Positions 1,126 through 24,157 of a stretch of 64,000 nucleotides of DNA are shown piece after piece. The DNA lies in NCBI GenBank assembly GCA_050174575.1, contig JBFXJT010000007.1, forward strand, positions 6,648 through 70,647. Reading direction: 5' to 3'. Positions within the stretch are counted from its first letter, which is position 1. Each line of letters opens with the position of its first letter. Position numbers and translations under genes: made by a program. Source of the DNA: Bacilli bacterium (GTDB lineage Bacteria; Bacillota_I; Bacilli_A; ML615J-28; CAG-698). The notes under the pieces were generated by a model. That model saw only the letters and a list, made by a program, of their open reading frames with translations. It ran no database searches and had not been told where the DNA came from.

Positions 1126-3408
1126 TCAAAGTAAATCCGCAATTACCCATAAAAATTTTGCTGTAGTATGGCCCCATACTTCTTTATAAACAGCATTATT
1201 TACCACTGGCCAAAATGGCATATCAAAAGATCCTTTTGTTTCAATCCCCACAGGCAATGAACCAATGAGTTGTTGTGAAAAAGCGACGTACAACGGATGA
1301 TAATTATGTCCTTCCCCATATTGAGTCGATGAAGCAAACGGATTTTTCCCTAAAATCCATTCGATTTGGTTAAAGGCGACTTGTTTTAAAATGGGGTCTT
1401 TAAAAAACGATCCAATGGAACTTGCTGCTTTTGCTTTACTTAATAGCGTTGCATGAAAACCGCGTCTTTGGATAGCAATTGGAAATCTTCTTAAAAAGAC
1501 ATTTTTATCAAGACTAATTCCTTCTTTAATCTGTTCATCTAATTGGTTTTTGTAAAAATCAAGAGGCTCACGGCTTGGGATTGTAAAACGGTCCAAATTG
1601 ATTTTATCTGTTTCATAAATATGGGCGGGTAACAGCCCATAAGGAGCTATAACATCTTTTGTTTGCATGATGTATTCTTGATACAATGTCAATGCTTGTT
1701 TCCATTTTTCATAGTTTGGATGGTTTGGAGCAACTTCCATCAGCTTGACAATTCCTGTAATTGGTGATTGTTCATGTCCACGATGTTCATAAGTTAAATA
1801 TGTCTTATGGCTTGGATCTTCATAGAAAAAACCTCTAATGGGCTTTTCCCAAGTCGGATAACTGATTTGTTGACATGCCATTACTTCATCAGCATATTGG
1901 ATGGAAGTTTCCAGATATTGTTCTTCTTTGGTAATTTCATATAATTGACTGGCAGCTAAAACAAGCGCCCCGCTAACTTGCGCAATTGGTCCCTTCCCCC
2001 ATCGCTTTGTATAAAGACCTTGTTTTAAACCTTCTAGACCAAAAGTAAAATCAGCTTTCGCAATTCTTAAACAATAATGTGCAAAAATATCATCGTTGTT
2101 TTGAAAAGCTTTGGCACAAGCAGATAATGCCATTGAAGCTAGAAAATTTTCAAATGGACCGTTTTCTGCAATATTTTTGATTGATGACGCAGAATCTAAT
2201 TTCAATAAATCACTTGATTTCATTTGATTACTTGTCCAAATGGAATACAGCACGGCTAAAGCTCGGTAACCATCACCAAAATGTGTTTTAAGTAGCCACT
2301 GTGCTCCCCATTTAGCTTCATCTAAAAGTCTCTTTGCAAGTTCATCATCATAATTCACAACCTTCTCATAACAGTCAATAAGTGAATGGCATATTTCAGC
2401 TGTACAGATGGCAAATTGAGATACATCTCCTGCATCATGCCAACCTCCGTGATCACTTACAAGTCGACCATCAATTGGATGGATTGTATGATGAACTAAG
2501 TGGCAGGGGCTATGAACGCCTAATACTTCGCAACCACAACGTAAGCTATGCAAAAAATCAACACTTTTAGAAATGACGTTTCGATAAGGAAAAGAAGAAA
2601 TCTCAAAGAGAGGTGTTTTCTGTTTGCCAATTTGTAATCGAAAAAGACCTGATTGTGTCCATTTAGAAAAATCCATTTCCCAAAATTCACCGTAATCATT
2701 GGTGATTTGGTGCAGTTTATCTTGAAAAACAAACTCATTTTGTTCGTTTAATAGTGAAAAATGGTCTTGATCGGTATTGCCTATAAGCGCCTTTTTTTCC
2801 GAATCAGTAAAATAACCACTATGGCAATAGGCGATTCTATCCTTTAAATGCCAACCAAAATCATCATCAGGTTCGACTTCTTCTAAAACAAGATTACTAA
2901 AATAAAATAAAACTTCCGGAATTGCTTCAGGTGGACATCCCATCAGCAGGGGTCCCATGCTAACTCTAATGATATCTTCGCGATTAAAGTTAGGCATCTC
3001 AAAAAAAACATGATTCCAAACATTAGGAATTAAGCTTGGCGCATGAACAATATTTTGATTAGCAGCATTTGTAATTGATGCATGAAAATAAAAATTTATA
3101 AATCCTTCGGCCCTCGGAAATACCCAAACCGACAAACGGTTAAATTCCTGCCAGTTTTCATGATTAATCGCTATCGAAAAACTACAAGAAGGGCGAGGAC
3201 GAATATCTTGAATATCTGTATTTGCTTTAATTAGCAAACTTGTTGACCCTTGATTTTCTTGGACAATTTCTTTTGAATAATTAATTTCTCCACTACCATT
3301 AAAAGAGGCATGTCGCATCGTATCACAATCATAGATGACTTTTGATTTAATGACCTTTTTTTGTTCCCAGCGCCAAGTAGCACTGTTTTTGTCTACACGA
3401 TTATTCAT
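1126..3408 (-). CDS. GH9-like glycoside hydrolase (N-terminal Ig-like domain plus (alpha/alpha)6 catalytic domain), cytoplasmic.
   Basis: 760-aa ORF with GGWHDAGDVSQF, which resembles the GH9 GGWYDAGDHVKF motif. No signal peptide. The C-terminal NAVYKEVWGHTTA region resembles GH9 signature 2. Confidence 0.5.
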   Translation of the reverse strand: MNNRVDKNSATWRWEQKKVIKSKVIYDCDTMRHASFNGSGEINYSKEIVQENQGSTSLLIKANTDIQDIRPRPSCSFSIAINHENWQEFNRLSVWVFPRAEGFINFYFHASITNAANQNIVHAPSLIPNVWNHVFFEMPNFNREDIIRVSMGPLLMGCPPEAIPEVLFYFSNLVLEEVEPDDDFGWHLKDRIAYCHSGYFTDSEKKALIGNTDQDHFSLLNEQNEFVFQDKLHQITNDYGEFWEMDFSKWTQSGLFRLQIGKQKTPLFEISSFPYRNVISKSVDFLHSLRCGCEVLGVHSPCHLVHHTIHPIDGRLVSDHGGWHDAGDVSQFAICTAEICHSLIDCYEKVVNYDDELAKRLLDEAKWGAQWLLKTHFGDGYRALAVLYSIWTSNQMKSSDLLKLDSASSIKNIAENGPFENFLASMALSACAKAFQNNDDIFAHYCLRIAKADFTFGLEGLKQGLYTKRWGKGPIAQVSGALVLAASQLYEITKEEQYLETSIQYADEVMACQQISYPTWEKPIRGFFYEDPSHKTYLTYEHRGHEQSPITGIVKLMEVAPNHPNYEKWKQALTLYQEYIMQTKDVIAPYGLLPAHIYETDKINLDRFTIPSREPLDFYKNQLDEQIKEGISLDKNVFLRRFPIAIQRRGFHATLLSKAKAASSIGSFFKDPILKQVAFNQIEWILGKNPFASSTQYGEGHNYHPLYVAFSQQLIGSLPVGIETKGSFDMPFWPVVNNAVYKEVWGHTTAKFLWVIADLL

Positions 3409-3620: not shown

Positions 3621-5477
3621 TTACTTCAATTTAATTATTTTTGCCGATTTTCTAGGAACATTGATTTTTTTTACAATCCAAATGTCATCAATCAAATCAA
3701 AACCTTCATTCAATTGATATTGAATTTCATGATTATTGTTGTTAATTATCGTTAATATTTTATCATTTCCCTTGCTTCTTGAGAAAGCAAAGATGTTGTT
3801 GGCTGTCGATTCTTCACAGTAATTACCATCAACAAAAATGGGATCTTTTCTAATAGCACCTAGTTTTTGATACCAACTTAAGATCTCTTGATTAATATTA
3901 TCCCAGTTGATTGTTTTACGGCAGAAAGGATCTCTGAACCCTTCAAGACCTGTTTCATCGCCATAAAAAATGGAAGGAACACCAGGGAGAGTAAACTGGA
4001 TGGCTGTTGCCATTTTCAATTTCATGATGGCATTGGAATAATCATTTTGATTCATATAATAATAGGCTTGCTCTTCTTTTGATAAATGGTCACCGTTTAC
4101 AAAAGCAAAATTAGTTAATAAACGAACTGTATCATGGGTTCCCAAATGGTTCATTAAACAATCCACTACTTGCTTAGGATAATTATTGATAAGATGACGT
4201 ATTTGAATAACCAACCCTGTTAAATTGTCATGGTTTAAAAAGTCGATAATTGCATTTTTTAAGGGGTAATTCATGACACTATCCATTTGTCTTCCCAATA
4301 AATATTTTCTTCTTTGGTCATAAGCCAATTTTGTGGATGCATCCTCCCAAACTTCACCGATTACAATGTTTTCAGGATTGTTTTTTTTCACTGAATTATA
4401 AATTTTCTCTAAGAAAGCATTATTTAGTTCATCAACAACATCTAGTCGAACACCTTTTGCTCCTTTCGTTAACCATTTATCTAAAACACCATATTTCCCA
4501 GTAATAAATTGTTGAAAATTGGGATCTTCTTGATTAACAGCTGGAAGTGTCTTAAAGCCCCACCAACAAATATATTGGTTTGGCCAATTAGTAAATTTAT
4601 ACCAACTGTAATATTTTGATGAACGTGACTGATAAGCACCAAGTTCTTGGTAATGGTTGTATTTGTTAAAATAAAGACTATCATCACCTGTATGATTAAA
4701 AACACCATCAAAAATAACTGAGATACCTTTTTCTTGGGCTTTTTGACACAATAATTGAAAGTCTTCTTCTGTTCCAAACATGGAATCAATCTTTCGGTAA
4801 TCACTTGTATCATACTTATGATTTGAAAAAGCTTCAAAAATCGGATTAAGATAAATAATGCCAACATTTAGTGATTCTAAATAGTCTAATTTGTCAATAA
4901 TACCTTGTAAATTACCACCAAAAAAATCATTATTTAAAACTGATCCATTAACAGGTTGATAATTGGGAACATCAAGCCAATTTTCATGCAATAGGGTACC
5001 AGTTTTGGGTGTCGTTTGTCCATGTTTATAAAAGCGGTCCACCATTATTTGGTACATTATTTTCCCTTTAAACCAGTTAAGATTACCAATTAGTTCTTGA
5101 TAAACTAACAATTGCCAAGATGTTGGATAATAATCCGTTAAAACACCATCCAAATCCCGATTTGAACCAATAAAATGTGTTCCATATGTGTCACTAAATT
5201 GAAAATAATACCAGTATAAACCAACTTGTGGCAACGAAAAAGAAACCGAATAAGCTTGATAGTTATTTTCGATTTGTTTTTTGACCAATCCTAATCGTTT
5301 TATTTCTTGATTCTTATCATCTTTGATAACCAAATCTAAATGGAACAGTTGATAGGCTTCTACGATATAAATAGTGATAATTACATTATCACTGATAATT
5401 ACATTATCACTATTTTTGATTGCCCCTTGAGGTGATTTAAAATGTTCAAAGAAAGGGTTGAATAAAATATTTTTCAT
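3621..5477 (-). CDS. GH13 alpha-amylase family enzyme (neopullulanase/cyclomaltodextrinase/maltogenic amylase type) with an N-terminal domain.
   Basis: 618 aa. GH13 conserved regions present: DGVFNHTG, GVRLDVVDEL, EVWEDAS, NHLGTHDTVR. Start overlaps the glgP stop (ATGA). Confidence 0.8.
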   Translation of the reverse strand: MKNILFNPFFEHFKSPQGAIKNSDNVIISDNVIITIYIVEAYQLFHLDLVIKDDKNQEIKRLGLVKKQIENNYQAYSVSFSLPQVGLYWYYFQFSDTYGTHFIGSNRDLDGVLTDYYPTSWQLLVYQELIGNLNWFKGKIMYQIMVDRFYKHGQTTPKTGTLLHENWLDVPNYQPVNGSVLNNDFFGGNLQGIIDKLDYLESLNVGIIYLNPIFEAFSNHKYDTSDYRKIDSMFGTEEDFQLLCQKAQEKGISVIFDGVFNHTGDDSLYFNKYNHYQELGAYQSRSSKYYSWYKFTNWPNQYICWWGFKTLPAVNQEDPNFQQFITGKYGVLDKWLTKGAKGVRLDVVDELNNAFLEKIYNSVKKNNPENIVIGEVWEDASTKLAYDQRRKYLLGRQMDSVMNYPLKNAIIDFLNHDNLTGLVIQIRHLINNYPKQVVDCLMNHLGTHDTVRLLTNFAFVNGDHLSKEEQAYYYMNQNDYSNAIMKLKMATAIQFTLPGVPSIFYGDETGLEGFRDPFCRKTINWDNINQEILSWYQKLGAIRKDPIFVDGNYCEESTANNIFAFSRSKGNDKILTIINNNNHEIQYQLNEGFDLIDDIWIVKKINVPRKSAKIIKLK

Positions 5478-13435: not shown

Positions 13436-13569
13436 TAAAAATAAACTCCAATACTTTGAGAAATTTTTATACTTTCGATTTTTATATCATAATTGTTTTT
13501 AATCCATTTTATTTTTTGAAAAAAAGCTTTAATACAAATTAATTTTGCATTAAAGCGTTTGTCTCTAAA

Positions 13570-13644: not shown

Positions 13645-13701
13645 AAGCAAAGTAATTATACTAAAATGAAAAGCAAATTGCAATCCTAATTTAATTACTC
13701 A

Positions 13702-13728
13702 TCAAAAAATGGCACCTTTTGGTGCCAC
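13702..13728 (-). terminator. Intrinsic terminator ending the lysine-fermentation operon.
   Basis: TGGCACC-TTTT-GGTGCCA hairpin followed on the minus strand by TTTTTT. Confidence 0.6.
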
Positions 13729-13731
13729 TTT

Positions 13732-14469
13732 CTATTCATTCAATTGCTTTCTTCTAATTAATTCTAAAACAGCAAAAGATGCTACATCTTCGGCATATTT
13801 CTTTTGACCGAATCCAGCATCATACCCCAATTCTTTTGCAAGTTCATGAGTTATTCTGGCTCCTCCGGCAATCAAAAGGACTTGATCTCTAATCCCTTCC
13901 GCTTCTAACATTTCCACAAGTTCTAATAAATTTTTCAAATGAACGTCTTTTTGTGTTACTGTTTGGCTAACAAGCAAAACATCCGCTTTAACTTCTTTAG
14001 CTTTTTTCACAAAAGCTTCATTGGAAACTTGACTACCTAAATTGTAAGTTTTGATGTTTTTATAGCGTTCTAAACCATAATGACCAGCAAAACCCTTCAT
14101 GTTCATAATGGCATCGATCCCAACAGTATGGGCATCAGTTCCTGTAGAAGCACCAATAAAAACAATTTCTCTTTTCAATTCGTTTTCAATCATTATTTCT
14201 ATTTCTTCTTTTGTATAAGTCGGAGTTGTGACATCACTAACATGAATAAGATTAGGATCAACAGAAAAAGGAATGGATCCATAAATAACATAAAAGCTAA
14301 AATTATCGCCCAAGGTCTCAGCTGCAACAACTTGAGGATCAATCAAACCCATTTGTTTTGCAAGAGACTTAGCGCATTCAATTCCTAGCGTGTTATTAAC
14401 AAGCGGTAAAGAAAAACTTATTTGGACTTTACCATCATTTGATGTATCGCCATAAGGTTTAATCAACAT
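13732..14469 (-). CDS. kamE: Lysine 5,6-aminomutase beta subunit (B12-binding).
   Basis: 245 aa with the Rossmann B12-binding motif IGASTGTDAHTVG (DxHxxG). Sits immediately downstream of the alpha subunit. Confidence 0.85.
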   Translation of the reverse strand: MLIKPYGDTSNDGKVQISFSLPLVNNTLGIECAKSLAKQMGLIDPQVVAAETLGDNFSFYVIYGSIPFSVDPNLIHVSDVTTPTYTKEEIEIMIENELKREIVFIGASTGTDAHTVGIDAIMNMKGFAGHYGLERYKNIKTYNLGSQVSNEAFVKKAKEVKADVLLVSQTVTQKDVHLKNLLELVEMLEAEGIRDQVLLIAGGARITHELAKELGYDAGFGQKKYAEDVASFAVLELIRRKQLNE

Positions 14470-16015
14470 GTTCTTCCTCCTCTAAAGCATCCATAACAAC
14501 ATTAACATAATTGTGGTGCTTTAAAAAAACGCCTTCTAATCCTTTTCCTCCAGTAAAACTGCGTTTGATGTCCGCAAATACGCCGTTTTCTAAAGCTTTG
14601 AATAGCGACATTTGTTCGATTTCTTGCAATAATTGATGAGCTTCGTTCAAAACATTTTTAGCTCTTTTTGCCATGATTCCATTTTGTTTATATTCAATTT
14701 CATCACCGAATGACTTCATCGAATTAGCAATCAATTTTGCATTTTCAATTGCTAAGTAGCGATCAGACATAAATGGTGTATGAATGGCTTCCGTCATCAT
14801 CCCCAACAGATGAATTGATTGATTAGAGATGATTGTTGCCATATTGAACATTGTGTTTTGCATATAAGCTCGGAAAATATTCCCAGTTATATGTTTTGTT
14901 GGTGGCATATATTTTAAAGGAGCCTCAGGGAAAATTTCTCTAGCCATTTGAGCTTGGGCTAATTCATACAAAAAACTATTTTCAATTGTCGGATCAATTT
15001 CAAAAGCATGGCCTAAACCCATTAAATTTTTTGGGAGGTGAGCTTTTATGGCGAATTGTTCATTAATAAATTGTGAAGCTAAAACGGTATGAGCTTGCGA
15101 ATAGGCATCAGCTGTTGTTAAGTAATTATCTTCACCGGTATTAATGATGATTCCCGCTAAAGCATTAATCCTTCTTGAAAAATTTTGATCAATTAGCGTT
15201 CTTTGCATATTAATATCACGGAAAATTATGCCATAAAGACTATCATTGAGTAAAACGTCGAGCCTTTCCAAAGCAGCCATTGCGGCGATTTCCGGCATAC
15301 ATAAACCCGATGCATAATTGACTAATTTTATATACCTTTTTTCCTGATGAGAAACCTGATCAAGTGCTTCACGCATAATGCGAAAGTTTTCTTGGGTGGC
15401 ATAAGTTCCGCCAAATCCCTCAGTTGTCGCCCCAAAAGGAACAAAATCTAATAAAGACTGCCCTGTTGACCTAATAACGGCAATAATATCAGCACCAGCC
15501 TTGGCAGCAGCTTTAGCTTGGATGACATCTTCATAGATGTTACCCGTTGCTACAATAACATAAATTTCAGTTGCTTTAGGTGGATATAGAGTAAACAAAG
15601 CTGCTCTTTTTTGTTTGTTTTGTTTAATTTTTTCTATTTGTTTTTGAACATATGGCTGTAAACTTAATTTAATATTTTTAGGAGATGCTAACGGAAAATC
15701 CGTTAATTTCATATCACCATTTAGGACGCTAGCCACCAAATCATTTAATGTTTTTTTAGTAGCAATCAAGGCACTCCCTAGATAACTGGAAACACCCAAA
15801 GTCAAATCGCCACTTTCTTTAACTTGGTTGACTAGTACATTAGGGATTGGCACGTCGAAGTCATCGACGCCATCAATTCCTAATAATCGAACAACAGTCC
15901 GCTCAATGGCAACGGTCGTGCGTTCGTTGATAAAGTTCTGAACATCATCAGCAATATGCAAGGCACATTGGCGACATTCATTGATAATATTTTGATCTAA
16001 ATGGAATTTATTCAT
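14459..16015 (-). CDS. kamD: Lysine 5,6-aminomutase alpha subunit (PLP/TIM-barrel).
   Basis: 518 aa. Size and context (kamE downstream, kamA upstream) fit 5,6-LAM alpha. Confidence 0.85.
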   Translation of the reverse strand: MNKFHLDQNIINECRQCALHIADDVQNFINERTTVAIERTVVRLLGIDGVDDFDVPIPNVLVNQVKESGDLTLGVSSYLGSALIATKKTLNDLVASVLNGDMKLTDFPLASPKNIKLSLQPYVQKQIEKIKQNKQKRAALFTLYPPKATEIYVIVATGNIYEDVIQAKAAAKAGADIIAVIRSTGQSLLDFVPFGATTEGFGGTYATQENFRIMREALDQVSHQEKRYIKLVNYASGLCMPEIAAMAALERLDVLLNDSLYGIIFRDINMQRTLIDQNFSRRINALAGIIINTGEDNYLTTADAYSQAHTVLASQFINEQFAIKAHLPKNLMGLGHAFEIDPTIENSFLYELAQAQMAREIFPEAPLKYMPPTKHITGNIFRAYMQNTMFNMATIISNQSIHLLGMMTEAIHTPFMSDRYLAIENAKLIANSMKSFGDEIEYKQNGIMAKRAKNVLNEAHQLLQEIEQMSLFKALENGVFADIKRSFTGGKGLEGVFLKHHNYVNVVMDALEEEEHVD

Positions 16016-16016
16016 A

Positions 16017-16922
16017 TTAATTACTCTTTTCTAAAACATCGTATATCGGTAAAGTTATTCTATCTTCTATTTTATTACGAAAATTTGCTAAAGAAATGAC
16101 ATTTCCAGTAGGAGAGAATGGATTAAAAGTTAAGGCAACAAGATTTATTGGTTGAAGTACAAAAATTTTTTGTTTTAAAAGCAACAAATGTTTTAACAAA
16201 ATATCATCAGCTAATAAATGTGTAGGACTATTAACGATTAAATCACAATTTAAGTTTTGACGATTGTCAATTAAGGCTTTTAAAAATGATGGACTAACCG
16301 CTTTAGGAACATATACATAACGAATATTTTGCTTAATTTGGGAAATTATGTCTGCTCCACAATCTAGTGTTGTCGTTCTTTTTAAGAATGACATTTTATT
16401 TTGATCATCAATTAAAACAATGTCATCCCATTCTTTTAAGTCAAGTGTCCCATTATATTTTGGCAAATTGAATAATTTGATGGTGTTTAAAGTATGTAGA
16501 ACAATTTTGTCAAGTTGATAGGAAAAACTAGAACCAACACAAAAAATCGTGGCATCACAAATTTGTGCAAGGGTTGTTCGGGAAAAAGCTCCATCAATCA
16601 ATATTTTTTGACATTCATATTCTTTTAATTTATCAATAATCATCCGCATTGATTGAATTGTCGATGGTCCCCCAACAAGACAGTTGCCGGCTTTGGTAAT
16701 TTTGATTAACACAATGGGACCTAATGCGGTCACAATCTTTGTTTCTTCGATAATGTCATATTGGGCTTCACATTCATCCAAACAATTTTTAGCGGTTGCA
16801 ACAATGGTGTTTGTGGAAGTAAAAATCCTTGGTTTCGGCAAGAAAGTGATTTGATCAATTTTTTCGCCATCAAGGCCAATAGAAGAAATACCCGTTGTAA
16901 TCGATTGATATTGTGTTAACAA
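16017..16922 (-). CDS. Conserved hypothetical protein inside the kam operon; possible 5,6-aminomutase accessory factor.
   Basis: 301-aa ORF starting with TTG, between kamA and kamD, translationally coupled to kamD (1-nt gap). No recognisable motifs. Confidence 0.45.
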   Translation of the reverse strand: MLTQYQSITTGISSIGLDGEKIDQITFLPKPRIFTSTNTIVATAKNCLDECEAQYDIIEETKIVTALGPIVLIKITKAGNCLVGGPSTIQSMRMIIDKLKEYECQKILIDGAFSRTTLAQICDATIFCVGSSFSYQLDKIVLHTLNTIKLFNLPKYNGTLDLKEWDDIVLIDDQNKMSFLKRTTTLDCGADIISQIKQNIRYVYVPKAVSPSFLKALIDNRQNLNCDLIVNSPTHLLADDILLKHLLLLKQKIFVLQPINLVALTFNPFSPTGNVISLANFRNKIEDRITLPIYDVLEKSN

Positions 16923-17002
16923 AAAATTTAAAACTGTTGTTTTCCCTGCATTTTTTGCATTGCCAACTGTACAAATTACTTGATAATCTTCAAGTAATGA
17001 AG

Positions 17003-18259
17003 TTAATGCTTTAATGCTCGTTCTCGTCTTTCTAAATGTTTGGGTTCGATTGCTCTTTGTTTGCCGGCAAGTAATCCACTAACACCTTCAGCTTCTTTAC
17101 TAGTACTGCAATTTGGATTTTCATGATAATCAGTTGGTTCATTGTAAGTGGTAATAACACCTTCATAATTTCTCAAAACAACTTTTCCCGGTGCTTGTGA
17201 AATTACATAGTTAGGCATAACGGGGATTTTACCTCCACCACCAGGAGCATCAACGACAAATGTCGGAACGCATAACCCACTAATGTGACCACGTAAACCT
17301 TCGATAATTTCAATACCTTTACTAATTGGTGTTCGGAAATGCTCAATACCAAGAGAAAGATCACATTGGTATAAATAGTATGGGCGAACACGCATTTGCA
17401 CTAAGCACGTGCATAATTTTCGCATTGTATCGACACAGTCATTAACGCCTCTTAAAAGAACACTTTGATTTCCCAAAGGAATTCCGGCATCAGCCATTTT
17501 CGCAATAGCCTTGGCACTTTCTTCAGTTATTTCATCATAATGGTTAAAATGAGTATTTACCCAAATAGGATGATATTTTTTTAACATTGAAACAAGTTCG
17601 TCCGTAATTCTTTGAGGCATAACAACGGGTGTCCTTGTGCCAATGCGGATAATTTCTACATGGTCAATTGCTCTTAAACGAGAAATGATTGATTCCAATT
17701 TCGCATCACTCATTAATAAAGCATCACCACCGGATAACAAGACATCTCGAACAGCAGGTGTTTTGCGAATATACTCAATTGCTTGTTCAATGCGATCACT
17801 TGGTAAATCATGGTCTGTTTGTCCTGCAAAACGTCTTCTTGTACAATGACGGCAATACATACTACACATATCCGTAATCAAAAACAAAACACGGTCAGGA
17901 TAACGATGTGTTAATCCAGGTACAGGTGAATCCTTATCTTCATCAAGCGGATCAACAAGATCGTTCTTGCCAATGATCATTTCATTAATGCTCGGGATAG
18001 CCTGTTTTCTAATTGGGCAATCAACGTTGTCTGGATCGATTAAACACAAAAAATAAGGTGTAATGGCCATCCGAAAACGTGATAGTACTTCAGTAATCTG
18101 TTGTTCTTCTTCGCTCGTTAAATTGATATATTTTTTAAGTTGCAAGACATCGGTAATCCGGTTTCGAACCTGCCAATGCCAGTCTTGCCAATCTGTTGAA
18201 GAGACATTAGGAAAATACTTTTGTTTTCTTTCTAAATATCTTTCATTTACTATTAACAT
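17003..18259 (-). CDS. kamA: L-lysine 2,3-aminomutase (radical SAM).
   Basis: 418 aa with the CSMYCRHC radical-SAM cysteine triad and the KamA-like length. Confidence 0.9.
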   Translation of the reverse strand: MLIVNERYLERKQKYFPNVSSTDWQDWHWQVRNRITDVLQLKKYINLTSEEEQQITEVLSRFRMAITPYFLCLIDPDNVDCPIRKQAIPSINEMIIGKNDLVDPLDEDKDSPVPGLTHRYPDRVLFLITDMCSMYCRHCTRRRFAGQTDHDLPSDRIEQAIEYIRKTPAVRDVLLSGGDALLMSDAKLESIISRLRAIDHVEIIRIGTRTPVVMPQRITDELVSMLKKYHPIWVNTHFNHYDEITEESAKAIAKMADAGIPLGNQSVLLRGVNDCVDTMRKLCTCLVQMRVRPYYLYQCDLSLGIEHFRTPISKGIEIIEGLRGHISGLCVPTFVVDAPGGGGKIPVMPNYVISQAPGKVVLRNYEGVITTYNEPTDYHENPNCSTSKEAEGVSGLLAGKQRAIEPKHLERRERALKH

Positions 18260-18262
18260 AAT

Positions 18263-19303
18263 TTACTCCTTCGGTTGATATCTTTTTACAAATAGATCAT
18301 AAAGCGGTTTTGATTCCCTTAAAAGGCTCAAGGTTAAATCGGCGTGTCCCGGAGTATAACCGTTACCGATAATCATGGTAGCTTCACTGGCAATGCCTTC
18401 AGCACCTAAAGCAGCTTTTGTGAAAGAAGTTGCCATACTGAAGAAATAAACAATACCGCTTGGTTTGGTTGCTAAAATCGATGTCATTTCTGTATTTGGA
18501 ACATTAACGACATTAATTGTGACATCAACTTGTTGATTATTATTGACTCGCATGATTTCTTGATAGACTGCCATCGGATCTCTAGCATCTGCTACAATGA
18601 TTTCGTCACAGACTCCGAGTGATTGCAAATCTTCAAGTTTATTGGTATTACTTATTAGCGCTATGATTTTGCCATTTGGACCGGCGTTCTTGTGAGCTTG
18701 ATAGCAGCATAATACACCACTTTTACCAGCTGCCCCTAGCACCAAAACAGTATTGTTAGGTTTAACCAATTTTTCAACTTGTGCAGGTGCACCAGCAACA
18801 TCTAAAGCAGATAATACTAAATGTTCACTTAAGTCATTGGGGATTTTCGCATAAATGCCCGTAGCAAATAAGATTGCTTCTGCTTCAACATCAACTTGAT
18901 CTTTATGCAAATGAATTTGTTTGATCGCTTTTATTTTTAATGGTGTTAGTGATAAAGAAACTAAAGTCACAATTTTATCACCAATTTTTAAATCGCATTT
19001 TAAGTCTTTTCCTATTTGTTTAATAACACCTAAAAGCATTCCCCCACTACCTGTTACAGGGTTTTGCATTTTTCCGCGTTTATTGACAATATCCATAATC
19101 ATCGTTTTCATGGCTTCCACATCACTATTAGTTGCTTGTTTAATTTGGGTAAAAGATGCGGAATCGATATTTAATGTTTTTACATCAATTAAAATTTCAT
19201 TGTCTTGGCAAATCATCGTATTATCTAATTGATCTGCAGCTTGAGGGAGAACACCTACCGGACTAATGACACGGTGAGTTCCATAAGGGCATGGCTTTTT
19301 CAT
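18263..19303 (-). CDS. kdd: L-erythro-3,5-diaminohexanoate dehydrogenase.
   Basis: 346 aa with a Rossmann GAAGKSG-type fold. Position between kamA and kce matches lysine-fermentation clusters. Confidence 0.8.
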   Translation of the reverse strand: MKKPCPYGTHRVISPVGVLPQAADQLDNTMICQDNEILIDVKTLNIDSASFTQIKQATNSDVEAMKTMIMDIVNKRGKMQNPVTGSGGMLLGVIKQIGKDLKCDLKIGDKIVTLVSLSLTPLKIKAIKQIHLHKDQVDVEAEAILFATGIYAKIPNDLSEHLVLSALDVAGAPAQVEKLVKPNNTVLVLGAAGKSGVLCCYQAHKNAGPNGKIIALISNTNKLEDLQSLGVCDEIIVADARDPMAVYQEIMRVNNNQQVDVTINVVNVPNTEMTSILATKPSGIVYFFSMATSFTKAALGAEGIASEATMIIGNGYTPGHADLTLSLLRESKPLYDLFVKRYQPKE

Positions 19304-20127
19304 ATTTTCTTCTCCATTCTTAATATTTTTCTAGTTTCTTCGGGATTGGCAATTTCCCGATTGTATTTTTTTGCAATTTGAACGACTTTCGCTACTAAAG
19401 CGGCATTCGATGGAGCTAATACTCCTTTGTCAATGTAAATATTGTCTTCTAAACCAACGCGAACATGACCACCATGCATAATGGAAAGTTCTGCAAGGGA
19501 AAATTCAAAACGACCGATTCCGGCAACACTATATGTCGCATCATTTGGAATGCTGTCCTTTAAAAACAGAAAATCCCGTTCTTCTCCAGTCATTCCACCG
19601 TTAACTCCTAAAACAAAACTAAAATGGTAGGGTGGATTAATAAAGCCTTTTTTCGCAAGTCTTTGTATCATATCAATATGACCTTTTTCAAAGCATTCAA
19701 GTTCTTTATAAATATGACGACTTTCCAAAACATTGGCAAAATACTTAATATCGTTTTCTGTATTAACAAAAATATCATCACCACCAAAGTTTAATGTTCC
19801 ACAATCAAGCGTCGCCATTTCAGGATTTAGAGTAACCGGACCTAAACGCTCATCACGGCTCATGCCAACGGCTCCTCCAGTTGATACTTGAACGATGACA
19901 TCGGGACATTTAGCTTTGATTGCTGTAATGATTTCTTTAAAACGTTTGGCATCTTGCGTCGGCGTTCCATCATCAAAACGGGCATGCAAGTGAATGATTG
20001 ATGCTTTCGCCAAATAAGCCTGATAAGCACTTTCAGCCATCTCTGAAACAGTATAGGGAACATTGGGATTATGGTCTTTAGTAACTTCCGCACCAGAAAT
20101 AGCACAAGTAATGATTAATTTTTCCAT
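19300..20127 (-). CDS. kce: 3-keto-5-aminohexanoate cleavage enzyme (BKACE/DUF849).
   Basis: Start placed at [17 protein letters not shown] (RBS GAGGAAAA). The TIM-barrel DUF849 family signature [10 protein letters not shown] is present. Confidence 0.8.
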
Positions 20128-20507
20128 GTTTTCCTCTGAAGAGCTTTTGGTACAACACAAGTACCCTTTGCAGAAGCAACCAAAATTGGTTCATCTAAAA
20201 AATCAGCTGCTGAAGGAACAATATTTGGTTTAGCTTCGATTACTTTGTAACATGCAAAAGTCATTTTTCTTGAAGTGTTTCCCACTTCAACAATTTCACC
20301 ATGCACTTCCAAAAAGTCACCAGCATAAACCGGAGCCAAAAAATCTACTTGCTCGTAAGCCCGAAATAATCCTTCATCTCCATCATGGCGAATGAGCAAT
20401 TCTGTCGCAACATCGCCAAATAAAGCTAAGATTCGAGCTCCATCCACAAGATTTCCTCCATAATGGGCATCGCTTAAGGACATTCGTAAACGGATTATTG
20501 TTTTCAT
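20115..20507 (-). CDS. kal: 3-aminobutyryl-CoA ammonia-lyase (hotdog fold).
   Basis: 130-aa hotdog-size protein located between kce and the CoA-transferase genes, as in Fusobacterium/Clostridium lysine clusters. Confidence 0.75.
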
Positions 20508-21151
20508 ATTGAAACTCCTTTCATTGGCAATACTTGATCAATAATTAAAGTTGCTTCAGTTACAGCGACAACTTCATCAATCGAATAATTAGGATGAACT
20601 TCTAATAGATGTAACCCATCGTCACGAACCTCCATAACGGCCATTTCTGTAACGATTAAGTTAGCTTGTTTATAAGCAGTAAGTGGTAAAACACAACGTT
20701 TTAATATTTTTGATTTTCCATTATTTGTATGTTGCATCGCAATAATAACCTTTTTAGCACCAACAACCAAATCCATGGCACCACCCATTCCCGGAACTTT
20801 CTTTCCTGGAATAATCCATGAAGCAAGGCTACCTTCTTCATCAACTTCAAGAGCACCTAGGACAGTGACATCAACATGACCACCACGAATAAACATAAAG
20901 GAAGTTGCAGAATCAATAAACGATCCTCCCGGCATAATCGTTGCTTTCATTCCTCCGGCATTAACGATATCACTTTGTTCTTCTGTTAATGGGCCAATAC
21001 CAATTATTCCATTTTCTGATTGTAAAATGACATGTTTGGTCGGAGGAATAAAATTTGCCACTAAAGTAGGAGTACCAATACCCAAATTGACAATATCGCC
21101 ATCTTTAAGTTCTAAAGCTATTCGACTAGCAATAATAAACTTTTCGTCCAT
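20504..21151 (-). CDS. atoA: 3-oxoacid (acetoacetate):butyrate CoA-transferase subunit B.
   Basis: 215 aa. N-terminus [29 protein letters not shown] is characteristic of the family I CoA-transferase beta subunit. Confidence 0.85.
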
Positions 21152-21798
21152 TATTCCACCTCCATAACGATGTAATCAACTAACGGAAAAGGTGTAATGA
21201 CTGCTTCAGGATCTATTTCTTCAAGTTTTTGCTGGCATACAGCAATCACTAATGATGCAGCTGTAGCCATGATTGGATTAAAATTACGCATTGTTTTGCG
21301 ATATGCAAGATTTCCATATCGATCGCAAATCGCTCCACCAATTAAAGCTAAGTCAGCAAATAACGGTTCTTCTAGCAAATAATCAATCCCTTGAACCTGG
21401 ATTACTCTTTTCCCTTCTTGAACAATTGTTTTTAGTCCAGTTGGGGTCAAAACACCACCTAGTCCCGCACCTGCAGCACGGATTTGTTCGACCAATGTCC
21501 CTTGAGGAACTAAAACAACTTCTAGTTTACCTTCTTGCATCAACTTCCCGACAGTTGGATTTGTTCCAATATGGGATGCAATCAATTTTTTAACCCGATT
21601 AGCAACAATCAATTTTCCAACTCCTCGGTCTTCAAATCCTCCGTCATTACAAATGATTGTAAAATCGGTAAAACTTGTTTCTAAAATTAAATCAATTAAG
21701 TAATCAGGACTTCCGTTTGCTAAAAAACCACCAACCATAATCGTCATGCCGGATTTAAGGTGACTTTTAAAATTTTCCTTACAAATAAAACCTCGCAT
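21151..21798 (-). CDS. atoD: 3-oxoacid CoA-transferase subunit A.
   Basis: 215 aa. The [18 protein letters not shown] glycine-rich motif belongs to the alpha subunit. Confidence 0.85.
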
Positions 21799-21807
21799 AT
21801 TTCCTCC

Positions 21808-22230
21808 TTACTTAGGGGGCATAATAGTCGCTTCACCGACTATCACCACTTCGTTTTTGTCGTTTTTTGCAACGCAATCAAAAACAACACGATTTTTTTC
21901 CATAATGATTTCTTTTACAGTCACAAAAGCCGTTATTGTATCATTCAAATAAACTGGCTTAATAAACTTTAAACTTTGGAAAGTATAGATACTTCCTAAA
22001 CCAGGTAATTCAGTACCTAAGATGGCACTAAAAAGAGAGCCAACAAGCATACCATGAACTATCCTCGTTTTAAAAATCGTTGTTTTTGCATAATCTTCAT
22101 TTACATGAGCGGGGTTAAAGTCACCAGAAACTGAGGCAAAATTGTTAACATCAGTTTCTGTAAAACTCTTTGTTATTGAACTTGTTTGTCCAATAAACAA
22201 TTCGTTAATTGTCAATTTTTTCAAGAAATA
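21808..22230 (-). CDS. MaoC-like (R)-specific enoyl-CoA hydratase/dehydratase (hotdog), first gene of the operon.
   Basis: The FNPAHVNEDYAKTTIFKTRIVHGML MaoC motif is present. The likely start is the TTG at approx 22230, preceded by AAAGGAG. The track ORF extends further upstream over the terminator and is probably over-called. Confidence 0.65.
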   Translation of the reverse strand, partial: YFLKKLTINELFIGQTSSITKSFTETDVNNFASVSGDFNPAHVNEDYAKTTIFKTRIVHGMLVGSLFSAILGTELPGLGSIYTFQSLKFIKPVYLNDTITAFVTVKEIIMEKNRVVFDCVAKNDKNEVVIVGEATIMPPK

Positions 22231-22232
22231 AC

Positions 22233-22265
22233 TCCTTTCATAAAAAAAGCTGTTGTCTTTTAAAG
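22233..22265 (-). terminator. Leader terminator/attenuator immediately upstream of the lysine-fermentation operon.
   Basis: Perfect 10-bp stem GCTGTTGTCT / AGACAACAGC with a 5-nt loop, followed on the minus strand by TTTTTTT. Confidence 0.7.
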
Positions 22266-22421
22266 ACAACAGCGCTCCATTTCCCAAATGGCAGTGGATA
22301 AGGCATTCCTTGTCCACCAAGACTTTAATGAATGAACTCATTAAATCTTTCGGCGATATTTCCCTTTATTTGTCACATTGGGAGTTCATTCCCTTAGCAT
22401 TGACAAATTACCCTAAATAAC
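22266..22421 (-). ncRNA. Lysine-riboswitch (L-box)-like 5' leader.
   Basis: Minus-strand leader begins AGAGGTGCG, contains GGGAAATATCGCCGAAAG, and forms several hairpins (GGGAA..TCCC, TTAATGA..TCATTAA, GTGGAcAAGG..CCTTaTCCAC, CCATTTgggaAAATGG) before GGAGCGC, resembling the five-stem L-box of B. subtilis lysC. Confidence 0.5.
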
Positions 22422-22438
22422 GCACCTCTGTGTATTAA

Positions 22439-22467
22439 CTAATACTATTATACCGAAACAAAAATGG
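22439..22467 (-). promoter_or_regulatory. Sigma-A-type promoter of the lysine-fermentation operon.
   Basis: Consensus TTGACA (22462-22467) and TATAAT (22439-22444) with a 17-nt spacer on the minus strand. Confidence 0.7.
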
Positions 22468-22483
22468 CTTGTCAAGAGCCACA

Positions 22484-22510
22484 AAGTTAAACAAAAAAAC
22501 ACTCCAATTG
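22484..22510 (-). terminator. Intrinsic terminator after the PAS-GGDEF-hemerythrin gene.
   Basis: Palindrome CACTCCAATTGGAGTG followed by TTTTTTTG on the minus strand. Confidence 0.6.
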
Positions 22511-22516
22511 GAGTGC

Positions 22517-24157
22517 TTAATCGTTTTGTTTGGTAAGATAGAAATATTTAGTATCCGCTTCAGCCATATGACCAACAATAAAATTATCTACTAAAAACGA
22601 TGCTAAAACGATACTTTTTATTTCACCATTTTGATATTTCTTTTTCATATCATTTGCTTTTAAAATAATGTCGCGATGCAGAGCACAATGTTCATCATAA
22701 TTAGGATAATCTAAATTATACATTACTTTTTCTTCAAAATAAAAATGTTGAGAAATGTGTTTGATGATTTTTTCAATTTGATTGATAATTTTTTCATAGG
22801 GAACATTTGTTTGAAACATAAAAATTAAGTTGTTTCCCAATTCAATAATCTCTCGATGTTGATTATCTATATCAACATTGCCACTACTCCATTCATTATG
22901 CCATTCAAAATACGGTGAAGTTGATAAAGATTCCATGGAGAGGCTCTCTGAAGAGCTTGCCACACGGTTACGTCCCTGTTCTTTTGCACAGTACATTGCA
23001 TCATCCGTACGTTTATACCAACTTCTTAATGACTCGTTAGGAATCATTTGGGCAACACCAAAACTTGCCGTTAATTTGGAAATAATGGGAAACCTGAAAC
23101 CTGCAACAGCAATTCGAATTTTATCAGCAACTTTTACAGCATCTTCCACTTTTGTATCTGGCAATACGATAACAAATTCTTCGCCTCCAAGACGAGACAA
23201 ATAGTCTGTTTTTCTAATTGATGATTTTAACAGTTGGGAAAAACTTACTAAAATATCATCACCAACAGGATGGCCCCAAGTATCATTTACAAATTTAAAA
23301 TGATCAATATCAGCAATAATCATTGATAAAGGCAAAGCTGTATTGTTGGCTTTTTCCATTGTTTCATTAGTAATTTTATGAAAGAAGTGACGATTGTAAA
23401 GTCCGGTAAGGTTATCAATTGTCATTTCAAATTCAAGACGGTTAGCTAATTCTACTGTTTTAGTGATATCGCGTGCAGACGCATAAATAAATCTTCCAAA
23501 TTGTTTTGCCCGCCACTCTAAAAAATGATATTGTCCATTTTTATCTTTATAACGATTAACAAAATTATTAATTTCTTCACCCTTAAGTAAATTTTTCATC
23601 ACTTCTCTTGTAGAAGAAATATCTTCCTCATGCATAAATTCAAAAAAAGTACGGGTTGTTAAATCAGCAAAGTTGGCTCCAACTAGGTTTTCAAAATAAT
23701 CATTTGTTTTAATAAAATGACCATCCATATCTGAGACCACTAAAAGGTCAAGGTTAACATCGATTAATCCTTTTAATAATTCCTCTTCTTTCATGGTTTT
23801 AGTGATATCTTCATAAAAGCAACCAAAGTGATGACAATCAATGGGAAAGATGGTTGCTTTAACCCATGAATGATTAATAGGTAAAAAGCAATTGCATGTT
23901 TTAACCTCTTTTTGATTTACTGCTTTCCTAAAGTTTTGATACCATTCATTGTTAAAATGATTATTAACATTTGCTGTTGATAAATAACTTTTTCCTATTA
24001 ATGCTTCTTTTGGAAGTGGAATAAACCGTTCAAACGCTTCGTTTACTCCGGAAAAATAGTAGTCAACAGGTTCTTGTTTTTCGTTAAAGATAATTTCATG
24101 AAAAGAACAAGGAATAGGAGATTCTTTAAAAAAGTCTAAAAAATTACAGTTATTCAT
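22517..24157 (-). CDS. Diguanylate cyclase with N-terminal PAS domain(s), a GGDEF domain (GGEEF) and a C-terminal bacteriohemerythrin domain.
   Basis: 546 aa. RLGGEEFVIVLPD is the active site. The C-terminus carries FEWHNEWSSGNVDIDNQHREI, HFYFEEKVM...YPNYDEHCALHRDII and LVDNFIVGHMAEADTKYF, matching the hemerythrin His/Glu/Asp iron ligands. Confidence 0.8.
   Translation of the reverse strand: MNNCNFLDFFKESPIPCSFHEIIFNEKQEPVDYYFSGVNEAFERFIPLPKEALIGKSYLSTANVNNHFNNEWYQNFRKAVNQKEVKTCNCFLPINHSWVKATIFPIDCHHFGCFYEDITKTMKEEELLKGLIDVNLDLLVVSDMDGHFIKTNDYFENLVGANFADLTTRTFFEFMHEEDISSTREVMKNLLKGEEINNFVNRYKDKNGQYHFLEWRAKQFGRFIYASARDITKTVELANRLEFEMTIDNLTGLYNRHFFHKITNETMEKANNTALPLSMIIADIDHFKFVNDTWGHPVGDDILVSFSQLLKSSIRKTDYLSRLGGEEFVIVLPDTKVEDAVKVADKIRIAVAGFRFPIISKLTASFGVAQMIPNESLRSWYKRTDDAMYCAKEQGRNRVASSSESLSMESLSTSPYFEWHNEWSSGNVDIDNQHREIIELGNNLIFMFQTNVPYEKIINQIEKIIKHISQHFYFEEKVMYNLDYPNYDEHCALHRDIILKANDMKKKYQNGEIKSIVLASFLVDNFIVGHMAEADTKYFYLTKQND

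Follow-up and report, generated by a model that had tools for sequence, protein, structure and literature searches.

A lysine riboswitch heads a lysine-fermentation operon

The window analysed here, a stretch of 64,000 nucleotides from contig JBFXJT010000007.1 of a Bacilli bacterium (assembly GCA_050174575.1), carries on its minus strand a ten-gene lysine-fermentation operon (22224..13732) preceded by a leader with a promoter, an aptamer of the lysine riboswitch (L-box) class comprising helices P1 to P5, and an intrinsic terminator (Table 1). We interpret this leader, with considerable confidence, as a lysine-activated ON riboswitch that acts at the level of transcription, an interpretation in which both lysine binding and the direction of the response are deduced from sequence. 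Gene junctions in the operon are short or overlapping, the only sizeable intergenic gap (~80 nt) lies between kamA and kamB, and no protein regulator is encoded in the operon. The initial annotation had described a lysine-degradation operon, and equivalog matches for Kal, Kce, Kdd, KamA, KamB, KamD and KamE, together with two CoA-transferase subunits, bear this out; the first gene encodes a MaoC-like dehydratase and kamA comes seventh. By these family assignments, the operon is a complete route for the fermentation of lysine to acetate and butyrate. The Kal protein is 100% identical to that of a 'Bacilli bacterium' metagenome-assembled genome (MAG), and its nearest relatives are found in MAGs of Izemoplasmatales and 'Tenericutes'.

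The leader is compact: a single promoter, an aptamer of 177 nt and a single perfect terminator fit into ~235 nt, counted from the -35 hexamer through the last U of the U-tract. The consensus promoter originally described (TTGACA, 17 nt, TATAAT) is a 12/12 match, the sole full match and the top of 45 promoter-like sites in a sigma-70/SigA consensus scan of 12 kb. Since promoter-like sites were no commoner than in shuffled sequences (45 versus 46.5, that is, no enrichment), the hexamers alone are weak evidence; positional conservation argues more strongly for a promoter, as the four closest leaders all keep TTGACA and have TA(T/A)AAT as the -10, both in register. Every element initially listed is present, but the -35 hexamer starts five bases outside the range first assigned to the leader (22233-22470), at 22475; likewise, the terminator and U-tract do end 3 nt from the ribosome-binding site (RBS), but the stem has 11 bp rather than the 10 bp initially counted. 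Both L-box hallmarks, AGAGGTGCG and GGGAAATATCGCCGAAAG, are present as described. Across five relatives, 98.2% of terminator cells were paired, compared with 31-62% when the alignment was slid, and two pairs showed compensatory changes. The 221-nt leader folded more stably than all of 200 dinucleotide-shuffled versions (z = -3.8).

Table 1 Features of the leader and operon in the window.
Feature	Coordinates	Strand	Remarks
-35 hexamer TTGACA	22475..22470	minus	Belongs to the 12/12 promoter match; unchanged, in register, in four related leaders
-10 hexamer TATAAT	22452..22447	minus	17-nt spacer from the -35; register kept in four related leaders
Putative transcription start	near A22440	minus	Placed by the usual 7-nt distance to the -10
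Lysine riboswitch (L-box) aptamer, P1 to P5	22438..22262	minus	RF00168 match
P1 5' strand ACAG	22431..22428	minus	Rfam alignment
L-box hallmark AGAGGTGCG	22429..22421	minus	Direct reading
L2 loop UGAAC	22388..22384	minus	Kissing partner of L3, fully complementary
L-box hallmark GGGAAATATCGCCGAAAG	22364..22347	minus	Direct reading
L3 loop GUUCA	22337..22333	minus	Kissing partner of L2
Intrinsic terminator hairpin GCTGTTGTCTT / TAA / AAGACAACAGC	22273..22249	minus	11-bp stem, five G-C pairs, 3-nt loop
P1 3' strand CUGU	22272..22269	minus	Common to the aptamer and the terminator 5' arm; switching sequence
U-tract, seven U (T7)	22248..22242	minus	Directly 3' of the terminator stem
RBS AAAGGAG	22238..22232	minus	ATG between U-tract and RBS; 3 nt from the terminator end
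TTG start codon, first gene	22224..22222	minus	7-nt spacer after the RBS; reading frame fits MaoC-family models
maoC-like, gene 1	22224..21808	minus	138 aa; MaoC-family models over residues 4-138
atoD	21798..21151	minus	3-oxoacid/acetate CoA-transferase A subunit; NCBIfam subfamily model above cut-off
atoA	21151..20504	minus	3-oxoacid/acetate CoA-transferase B subunit; NCBIfam subfamily model above cut-off
kal	20507..20115	minus	3-aminobutyryl-CoA ammonia lyase; NCBIfam equivalog, 194 bits, cut-off 160
kce	20160..19300	minus	3-keto-5-aminohexanoate cleavage enzyme; NCBIfam equivalog, 412 / 382
kdd	19303..18263	minus	3,5-diaminohexanoate dehydrogenase; NCBIfam equivalog, 259 / 200
kamA, gene 7	18259..17003	minus	Lysine 2,3-aminomutase; NCBIfam equivalog, 611 / 525
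kamB	16922..16017	minus	Reactivase subunit; NCBIfam equivalog, 257 / 210
kamD	16015..14459	minus	Lysine 5,6-aminomutase alpha subunit; NCBIfam equivalog, 838 / 600
kamE	14469..13732	minus	Lysine 5,6-aminomutase beta subunit; NCBIfam equivalog, 369 / 280

The aptamer belongs to the lysine riboswitch family

The leader matched the Rfam lysine riboswitch model RF00168 over all of its positions (1-182 of 182) with 81.1 bits (gathering threshold 30; E = 1.3e-19), the only riboswitch match in the window, and it scored 169.9 bits with R1, a covariance model built in this analysis. The match covers more than the interval 22266..22421 in which the aptamer had been placed, extending from 22262 to 22438. 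In 13 kal-linked elements, RNAalifold predicted 48 pairs, 35 of them with compensatory changes; in a 13-sequence aptamer alignment that was not fitted to any structure, the fold together with the L2-L3 pseudoknot was paired in 90.6% of cells compared with 38-47% in slid controls, and none of 500 shuffles reached the observed values on any measure. The L2-L3 kissing helix itself was paired in 84.6% of cells in the 13 sequences, with four of its five pairs changing on both sides (for example, UGAAC/GUUCA in the window and UGGAC/GUCCA in locus L045 of the kal loci compared below), and the second position of P1 covaries with its partner across the 13 relatives (CG in eight, UA in four and UG in one). 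The five-way-junction fold of the initial annotation is thus supported for P1 to P5 by covariation and by the L2-L3 contact. Together, the Rfam match, the covariation of five helices and the loop-loop contact support the assignment of the element as a lysine riboswitch, from which lysine binding itself is predicted.

The conserved nucleotides point the same way. The core motifs AGAGGNGC, GCCGAA, the GG of CUUGG and AUGGAGNGCU do not vary among the 13 kal-linked elements and also occur in the window, and the GGGUAA...AAAGGG of the window sits on the consensus loop-E columns of the Rfam alignment with high posterior probability. The window also contains the lysine-pocket motifs AGAGGUGCG, GCCGAAAG, CUUGGUGG and AUGGAGCGCU, whose columns are invariant in the 13 sequences; the pocket nucleotides of the Bacillus subtilis riboswitch (G39, G40, G111, A112, G144, G193 and G195; PMC3082890) were put onto these motifs by eye and at motif level, without a structural alignment. 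In this mapping G39, for which a core mutation (G39C) is described in that paper, corresponds to G22426. An alternative interpretation is that the aptamer only resembles a lysine riboswitch and has a ligand different from L-lysine, for instance beta-lysine, an intermediate of the pathway. Variants that keep the fold and switch ligand exist in other classes, for example the 8-oxoguanine variants of guanine riboswitches (PMC10556655), the ligand of kal-linked L-boxes is a prediction throughout, and an RF00168 score of 81 bits is well above threshold yet not exceptional. We consider another ligand quite improbable because the core junction motifs that are invariant in the 13 elements match the Rfam consensus, because the conserved junction motifs showed no systematic substitution (with lysine contacts mapped at motif level only), and because substrate induction by lysine is the simplest logic for this pathway.

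P1 and the terminator compete for the same nucleotides

All four nucleotides of the P1 3' strand lie inside the 5' arm of the terminator (22273..22263), so P1 and the terminator are mutually exclusive, and the terminator 3' arm begins 10 nt after P1, which leaves no room for a separate antiterminator. Left free, the leader folded with ViennaRNA into the terminator form at -62.1 kcal/mol; when the four P1 pairs were forced (-56.8 kcal/mol), what was left of the terminator was a hairpin of six pairs (UGUCUU/AAGACA) with 5 nt between it and the U-tract, a remnant that should not terminate transcription. In the lysine riboswitch family, ligand binding stabilises P1 (PMC3082890). Since P1 and the terminator exclude each other, stabilisation of P1 would promote read-through, which is ON logic.

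Related leaders share this geometry. An alignment of 15 Kal proteins served to retrieve 80 kal loci from a collection with one genome per species, and a covariance model built from 13 candidate elements identified 25 further L-boxes, which fall in 24 of these loci and are without exception on the kal strand; a regex candidate on the minus strand of L014 (2137..1973) aligned poorly and was dropped, and the model found the element of that locus on the plus strand. With first hairpins placed by RNAfold in a fixed register, 26 of 26 elements, the one in the window included, had a first hairpin after the aptamer that began 1-8 nt before the P1 3' strand and had a U-rich tract behind it; hence, the terminator 5' arm always consists of junction purines and the P1 3' strand. 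The observation made in the initial annotation is confirmed, and its interpretation, inverted (ON) logic ahead of a catabolic operon, is supported: the suspected overlap between the P1 3' strand and the terminator 5' arm exists, forcing P1 removes the terminator, no separate antiterminator accompanies the overlap, and the arrangement is the same in all 26 leaders.

The experimentally characterised natural lysine riboswitches, those of B. subtilis and Escherichia coli, are all OFF switches (PMC11477304), and the leader could by that precedent be a conventional OFF switch, or else a constitutive attenuator, in which lysine has no positive effect on expression. An OFF switch requires that P1 and the terminator form together and that a separate antiterminator exists, but here 22272..22269 is shared, there is no antiterminator segment, and formation of P1 leaves only the 6-bp hairpin at its distance from the U-tract. 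OFF-type L-boxes in the comparison set have their terminators 36-87 nt downstream: in L108, before an aspartokinase gene, and the L149 type, before a gene for a secreted protein, the terminators lie ~36 and ~87 nt after P1, respectively, with no fermentation genes downstream, although these are two examples that turned up by chance in a metagenome scan. As for an attenuator that is a relic, 35 covarying pairs would not persist in a decaying element. We therefore regard OFF or constitutive behaviour as highly improbable. The B. subtilis lysC L-box illustrates the difference. It shares with the window element the five-helix aptamer, the L2-L3 kissing contact, the core nucleotides and control by an intrinsic terminator (PMC3082890), but in lysC P1 is an anti-antiterminator, a separate antiterminator competes with the downstream terminator, and lysine leads to termination, whereas the window element has no antiterminator, a much shorter P1 (4-bp core) that competes directly with the terminator, and a terminator whose formation lysine should prevent.

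A further possibility is dual control: antitermination would be joined by pairing of the U-tract region AGCUUUUUU with the RBS segment AAAGGAGUU in read-through transcripts, which would modulate translation. The fold with P1 forced does contain a 9-pair, G-U-rich helix between 22251..22243 and the RBS region (22238-22230), and the terminator ends only 3 nt from the RBS. The helix is weak, with mostly A-U and G-U pairs, it would lower expression in the ON state, to little regulatory purpose, and the distance between terminator and RBS varies among related leaders; we consider this additional layer of control unlikely.

Several points weigh against lysine-activated antitermination. P1 in the window has only four contiguous pairs, and the next two model positions in the Rfam alignment are non-canonical; an extended P1 with a bulged C22432 and three further A-U/G-U pairs reached only -50.2 kcal/mol when forced, ~6.6 kcal/mol worse than the 4-bp P1, and is not claimed. 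When ligand energy is left out, the terminator form is favoured by ~5 kcal/mol, so the switch depends on lysine and tertiary contacts supplying no less than this in a brief time window. The start of transcription is a putative one, and the 26 concordant leaders are related sequences rather than independent trials. The initial annotation had also remarked that activating lysine elements are predicted but little studied, and this holds: PMC2258182 and PMC5584792 describe them, and we found no experimental study of any natural ON-type lysine riboswitch in the literature searched, which left most subscription journals outside its scope and is no proof of absence.

A mechanism for lysine-activated antitermination can be proposed from this arrangement. 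Transcription would start ~7 nt after TATAAT, and a standard L-box aptamer would be made at once, with the P1 3' strand CUGU as its last strand and, at the same time, the start of the terminator 5' arm; the terminator 3' arm and U-tract would emerge within 25 nt of the P1 3' strand. When lysine is scarce, P1 with its 4-bp core would lose to the 11-bp terminator, and transcription would stop 3 nt before the RBS. When lysine is abundant, the bound aptamer would keep P1 closed, only the 6-bp remnant hairpin could form, and polymerase would read through into the ten genes. Because the decision window is only ~25 nt, the energy deficit ~5 kcal/mol and P1 short, the switch is probably under kinetic control and in need of high lysine concentrations, which would suit a catabolic operon.

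Predicted lysine ON riboswitches across kal loci and in earlier work

All 25 elements found in the genome set precede lysine-fermentation clusters, and each lies upstream of the fermentation genes except the second element of L052, which lies inside the cluster. The gene order of the window, maoC-atoD-atoA-kal-kce-kdd-kamA, recurs at 10 of the 25. The product of the first gene, a MaoC-like (R)-specific enoyl-CoA hydratase/dehydratase, is outside the canonical set of lysine-fermentation enzymes; ten related loci have the same gene at the front of the cluster, a position taken in L045, L034 and L003 by a more distant hotdog-fold gene. This enzyme may act on crotonyl-CoA, the product of Kal. L052, from a Eubacterium-labelled MAG, has two complete ON-type L-boxes, one (2852-3031) before kal and the other (3708-3890) before kce-kdd-kamA, and the pathway there would thus be split into two lysine-gated units.

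Roughly two-thirds of the kal loci from Bacillota and Mycoplasmatota with enough upstream sequence use the design in which P1 overlaps the terminator. Loci with an L-box are labelled Bacillota or Mycoplasmatota, with the sole exception of L001 (CAZYFI010000027.1), labelled 'uncultured Bacteroidales'. The Kal protein of L001 is 85% identical to that of the window, its operon proteins are 81-90% identical, and its leader and terminator are almost identical; on this resemblance, L001 is more likely a mis-binned contig from the lineage of the window than a Bacteroidales sequence. No L-box was found within the fetched flank of kal loci from Bacteroidota, Myxococcota, Thermotogota, Cetobacterium and Asgard archaea. 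At loci L018, L019 and L033 (a Promethearchaeia MAG, a MAG whose sole label is 'uncultured archaeon', and Promethearchaeum syntrophicum MK-D1, the first and last being Asgard archaeal genomes), the encoded Kal shares 67-71% identity with that of the window, and the covariance model found no L-box within 6 kb upstream. Such high identity across domains suggests transfer of the pathway genes without the RNA switch.

Activating LYS elements before lysine-catabolic genes were predicted by Rodionov et al. in 2003, as far as the citing papers report (PMC2258182, PMC5584792), and were catalogued again in 2007 and 2017. Lysine riboswitches with ON logic are said to conceal parts of terminator stems (PMC2258182), and Mukherjee et al. 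(2017) listed positively regulated kal/kce lysine riboswitches in C. sticklandii, F. nucleatum, T. tengcongensis and T. wiegelii (PMC5584792). The window element shares with the activating LYS elements of Thermoanaerobacter tengcongensis, Fusobacterium nucleatum and Clostridium sticklandii its aptamer class, pathway (kal, kce, kamA) and predicted logic, a likeness that rests on the citing papers rather than on the structures drawn in 2003. Unlike those elements, it comes from an uncultured Bacilli MAG related to Izemoplasmatales, and its operon is longer and begins with the MaoC-like gene and two CoA-transferase subunits, whereas the known operons begin with kal, kamA or a pspF-like regulator. 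The ON-type glycine (gcvT) and adenine (ydhL/pbuE) riboswitches likewise use ligand binding to sequester a terminator arm in the closing helix and activate catabolic or efflux functions (PMC2258182, PMC11477304), but they belong to other aptamer classes with other ligands and are experimentally validated, whereas the window switch is predicted.

The element is therefore a clean new example of an arrangement predicted twenty years ago rather than a new kind of element, and it will not surprise a specialist. It provides a secure annotation of a lysine-to-butyrate/acetate pathway under predicted substrate-induced RNA control in an uncultured Izemoplasmatales-like bacterium. Natural lysine ON switches have been predicted since 2003, yet engineers, regarding the natural switches as repressors, evolved artificial lysine-activated ones (PMC10974012); the compact element described here is a convenient natural template for first tests of lysine ON control and for engineering tools.

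Iterated terminators in Clostridia-type leaders

Outside the window, 4 of the 25 genome-set elements have extra copies of the aptamer 3' segment downstream, two in L043 (L043:5730-5900) and one each in L057 (L057:5850-5965), L070 (L070:5745-5870) and the first element of L052 (L052:3010-3170). The copied segment, UGRNGNRCURU (AUGRNGNGCUAU), extends over the P5 3' strand, the J5/1 junction and the 3' strand of P1, and it was matched five times in the 8.2 kb scanned compared with ~0.25 matches expected by chance. Every copy stands at the start of another hairpin, which in most cases has a U-tract, giving two or three successive terminators behind one aptamer; the window element has a single terminator and no iterated copies. 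A metagenome scan for an L-box core followed by two segment copies, with a pattern that set no condition on the downstream gene, returned at least 120 matches. Among the matches listed, 59 of 80 loci (L081-L160) were L-boxes confirmed by the model, representing at least 39 distinct sequences and at least about 11 families in a set chosen by pattern and made up of related families, and all elements lay directly before kal or kce except the two OFF-type groups. Metagenome examples of iterated terminators are L100, L160, L104, L093, L083 and L103.

Two ways in which the copies might act were considered. In a strand swap, copy 2 would take the place of copy 1 in the aptamer; beyond the four bases that the search pattern had set, pairing of copy 2 with its own P1 5' strand averaged 5.61 bp against a null of 5.20. 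In a relay, lysine would hold copy 1 in the aptamer and thereby free the 3' arm of terminator 1, which could pair with copy 2, since copy 2 resembles copy 1, and act as an antiterminator of terminator 2. A relay hairpin was predicted in several families with inconsistent z values against shuffles (-5.1 to +0.9), and the sequence similarity of the copies makes such a hairpin almost automatic. Two Clostridium leaders that were not selected by the motif, L046 (L046:5830-5960) and L075 (L075:5850-5990), have a long first hairpin over P1 with a weak U-tract and, 60-80 nt later, a strong terminator that does not obviously copy the aptamer 3' segment. In both, pairing between the 3' arm of the first hairpin and the 5' arm of the second terminator beat shuffles (P = 0.014 and P = 0.034, respectively), which is suggestive only in favour of a relay.

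The Bc1 cyclic di-GMP-I riboswitch likewise combines one aptamer with two intrinsic terminators a few tens of nucleotides apart, and its second terminator stays folded, masks the ligand response and is itself unresponsive to ligand (PMC11218506). In contrast, each extra terminator in the lysine ON leaders (L043, L057, L070, L052 and about 11 metagenome families) starts with a copy of the aptamer 3' segment, which suggests that the ligand state may be passed on to the extra terminators. Bc1 was the only related case in the literature searched, in which no description of iterated aptamer-copy terminators or of a relay platform was found for any riboswitch class; a 2022 review of tandem riboswitch architectures has no such layout. 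We caution that the iterated terminators are a lead, not a result. Only tentatively, and as a somewhat doubtful proposal, can fermentation-linked lysine ON riboswitches be seen as a coherent and widespread Bacillota/Mycoplasmatota sub-class that works by direct competition between P1 and terminator, with the window element as its minimal, single-terminator form and the Clostridia-type leaders as a relay of several checkpoints behind one aptamer. If true, the relay would hand the ON state down the leader and allow a tighter OFF state.

Neighbouring genes

The neighbours of the operon (a gene for a PAS-GGDEF-hemerythrin protein, speE, speD, a gene for a leucine-rich-repeat protein and tRNA-Val) showed no evident link to the switch in the window, and those upstream (the PAS-GGDEF-hemerythrin gene, speE and speD) are unrelated to the operon and separately terminated. 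The immediate upstream neighbour (24157-22517, minus strand) encodes a 546-aa protein with PAS, GGDEF diguanylate cyclase and C-terminal hemerythrin domains, a domain composition from which it may be an oxygen- or iron-responsive cyclic di-GMP synthase; its own terminator (22518..22497, minus strand) lies upstream of the riboswitch promoter. On the other side, a tRNA-Val (GAC) gene directly follows kamE (13683-13570, minus strand), with its own promoter-like site at 13683..13655 (TTGCAA, 17-nt spacer, TATAAT), a terminator at 13556..13526 and an inverted repeat (13710..13727) between kamE and the tRNA.

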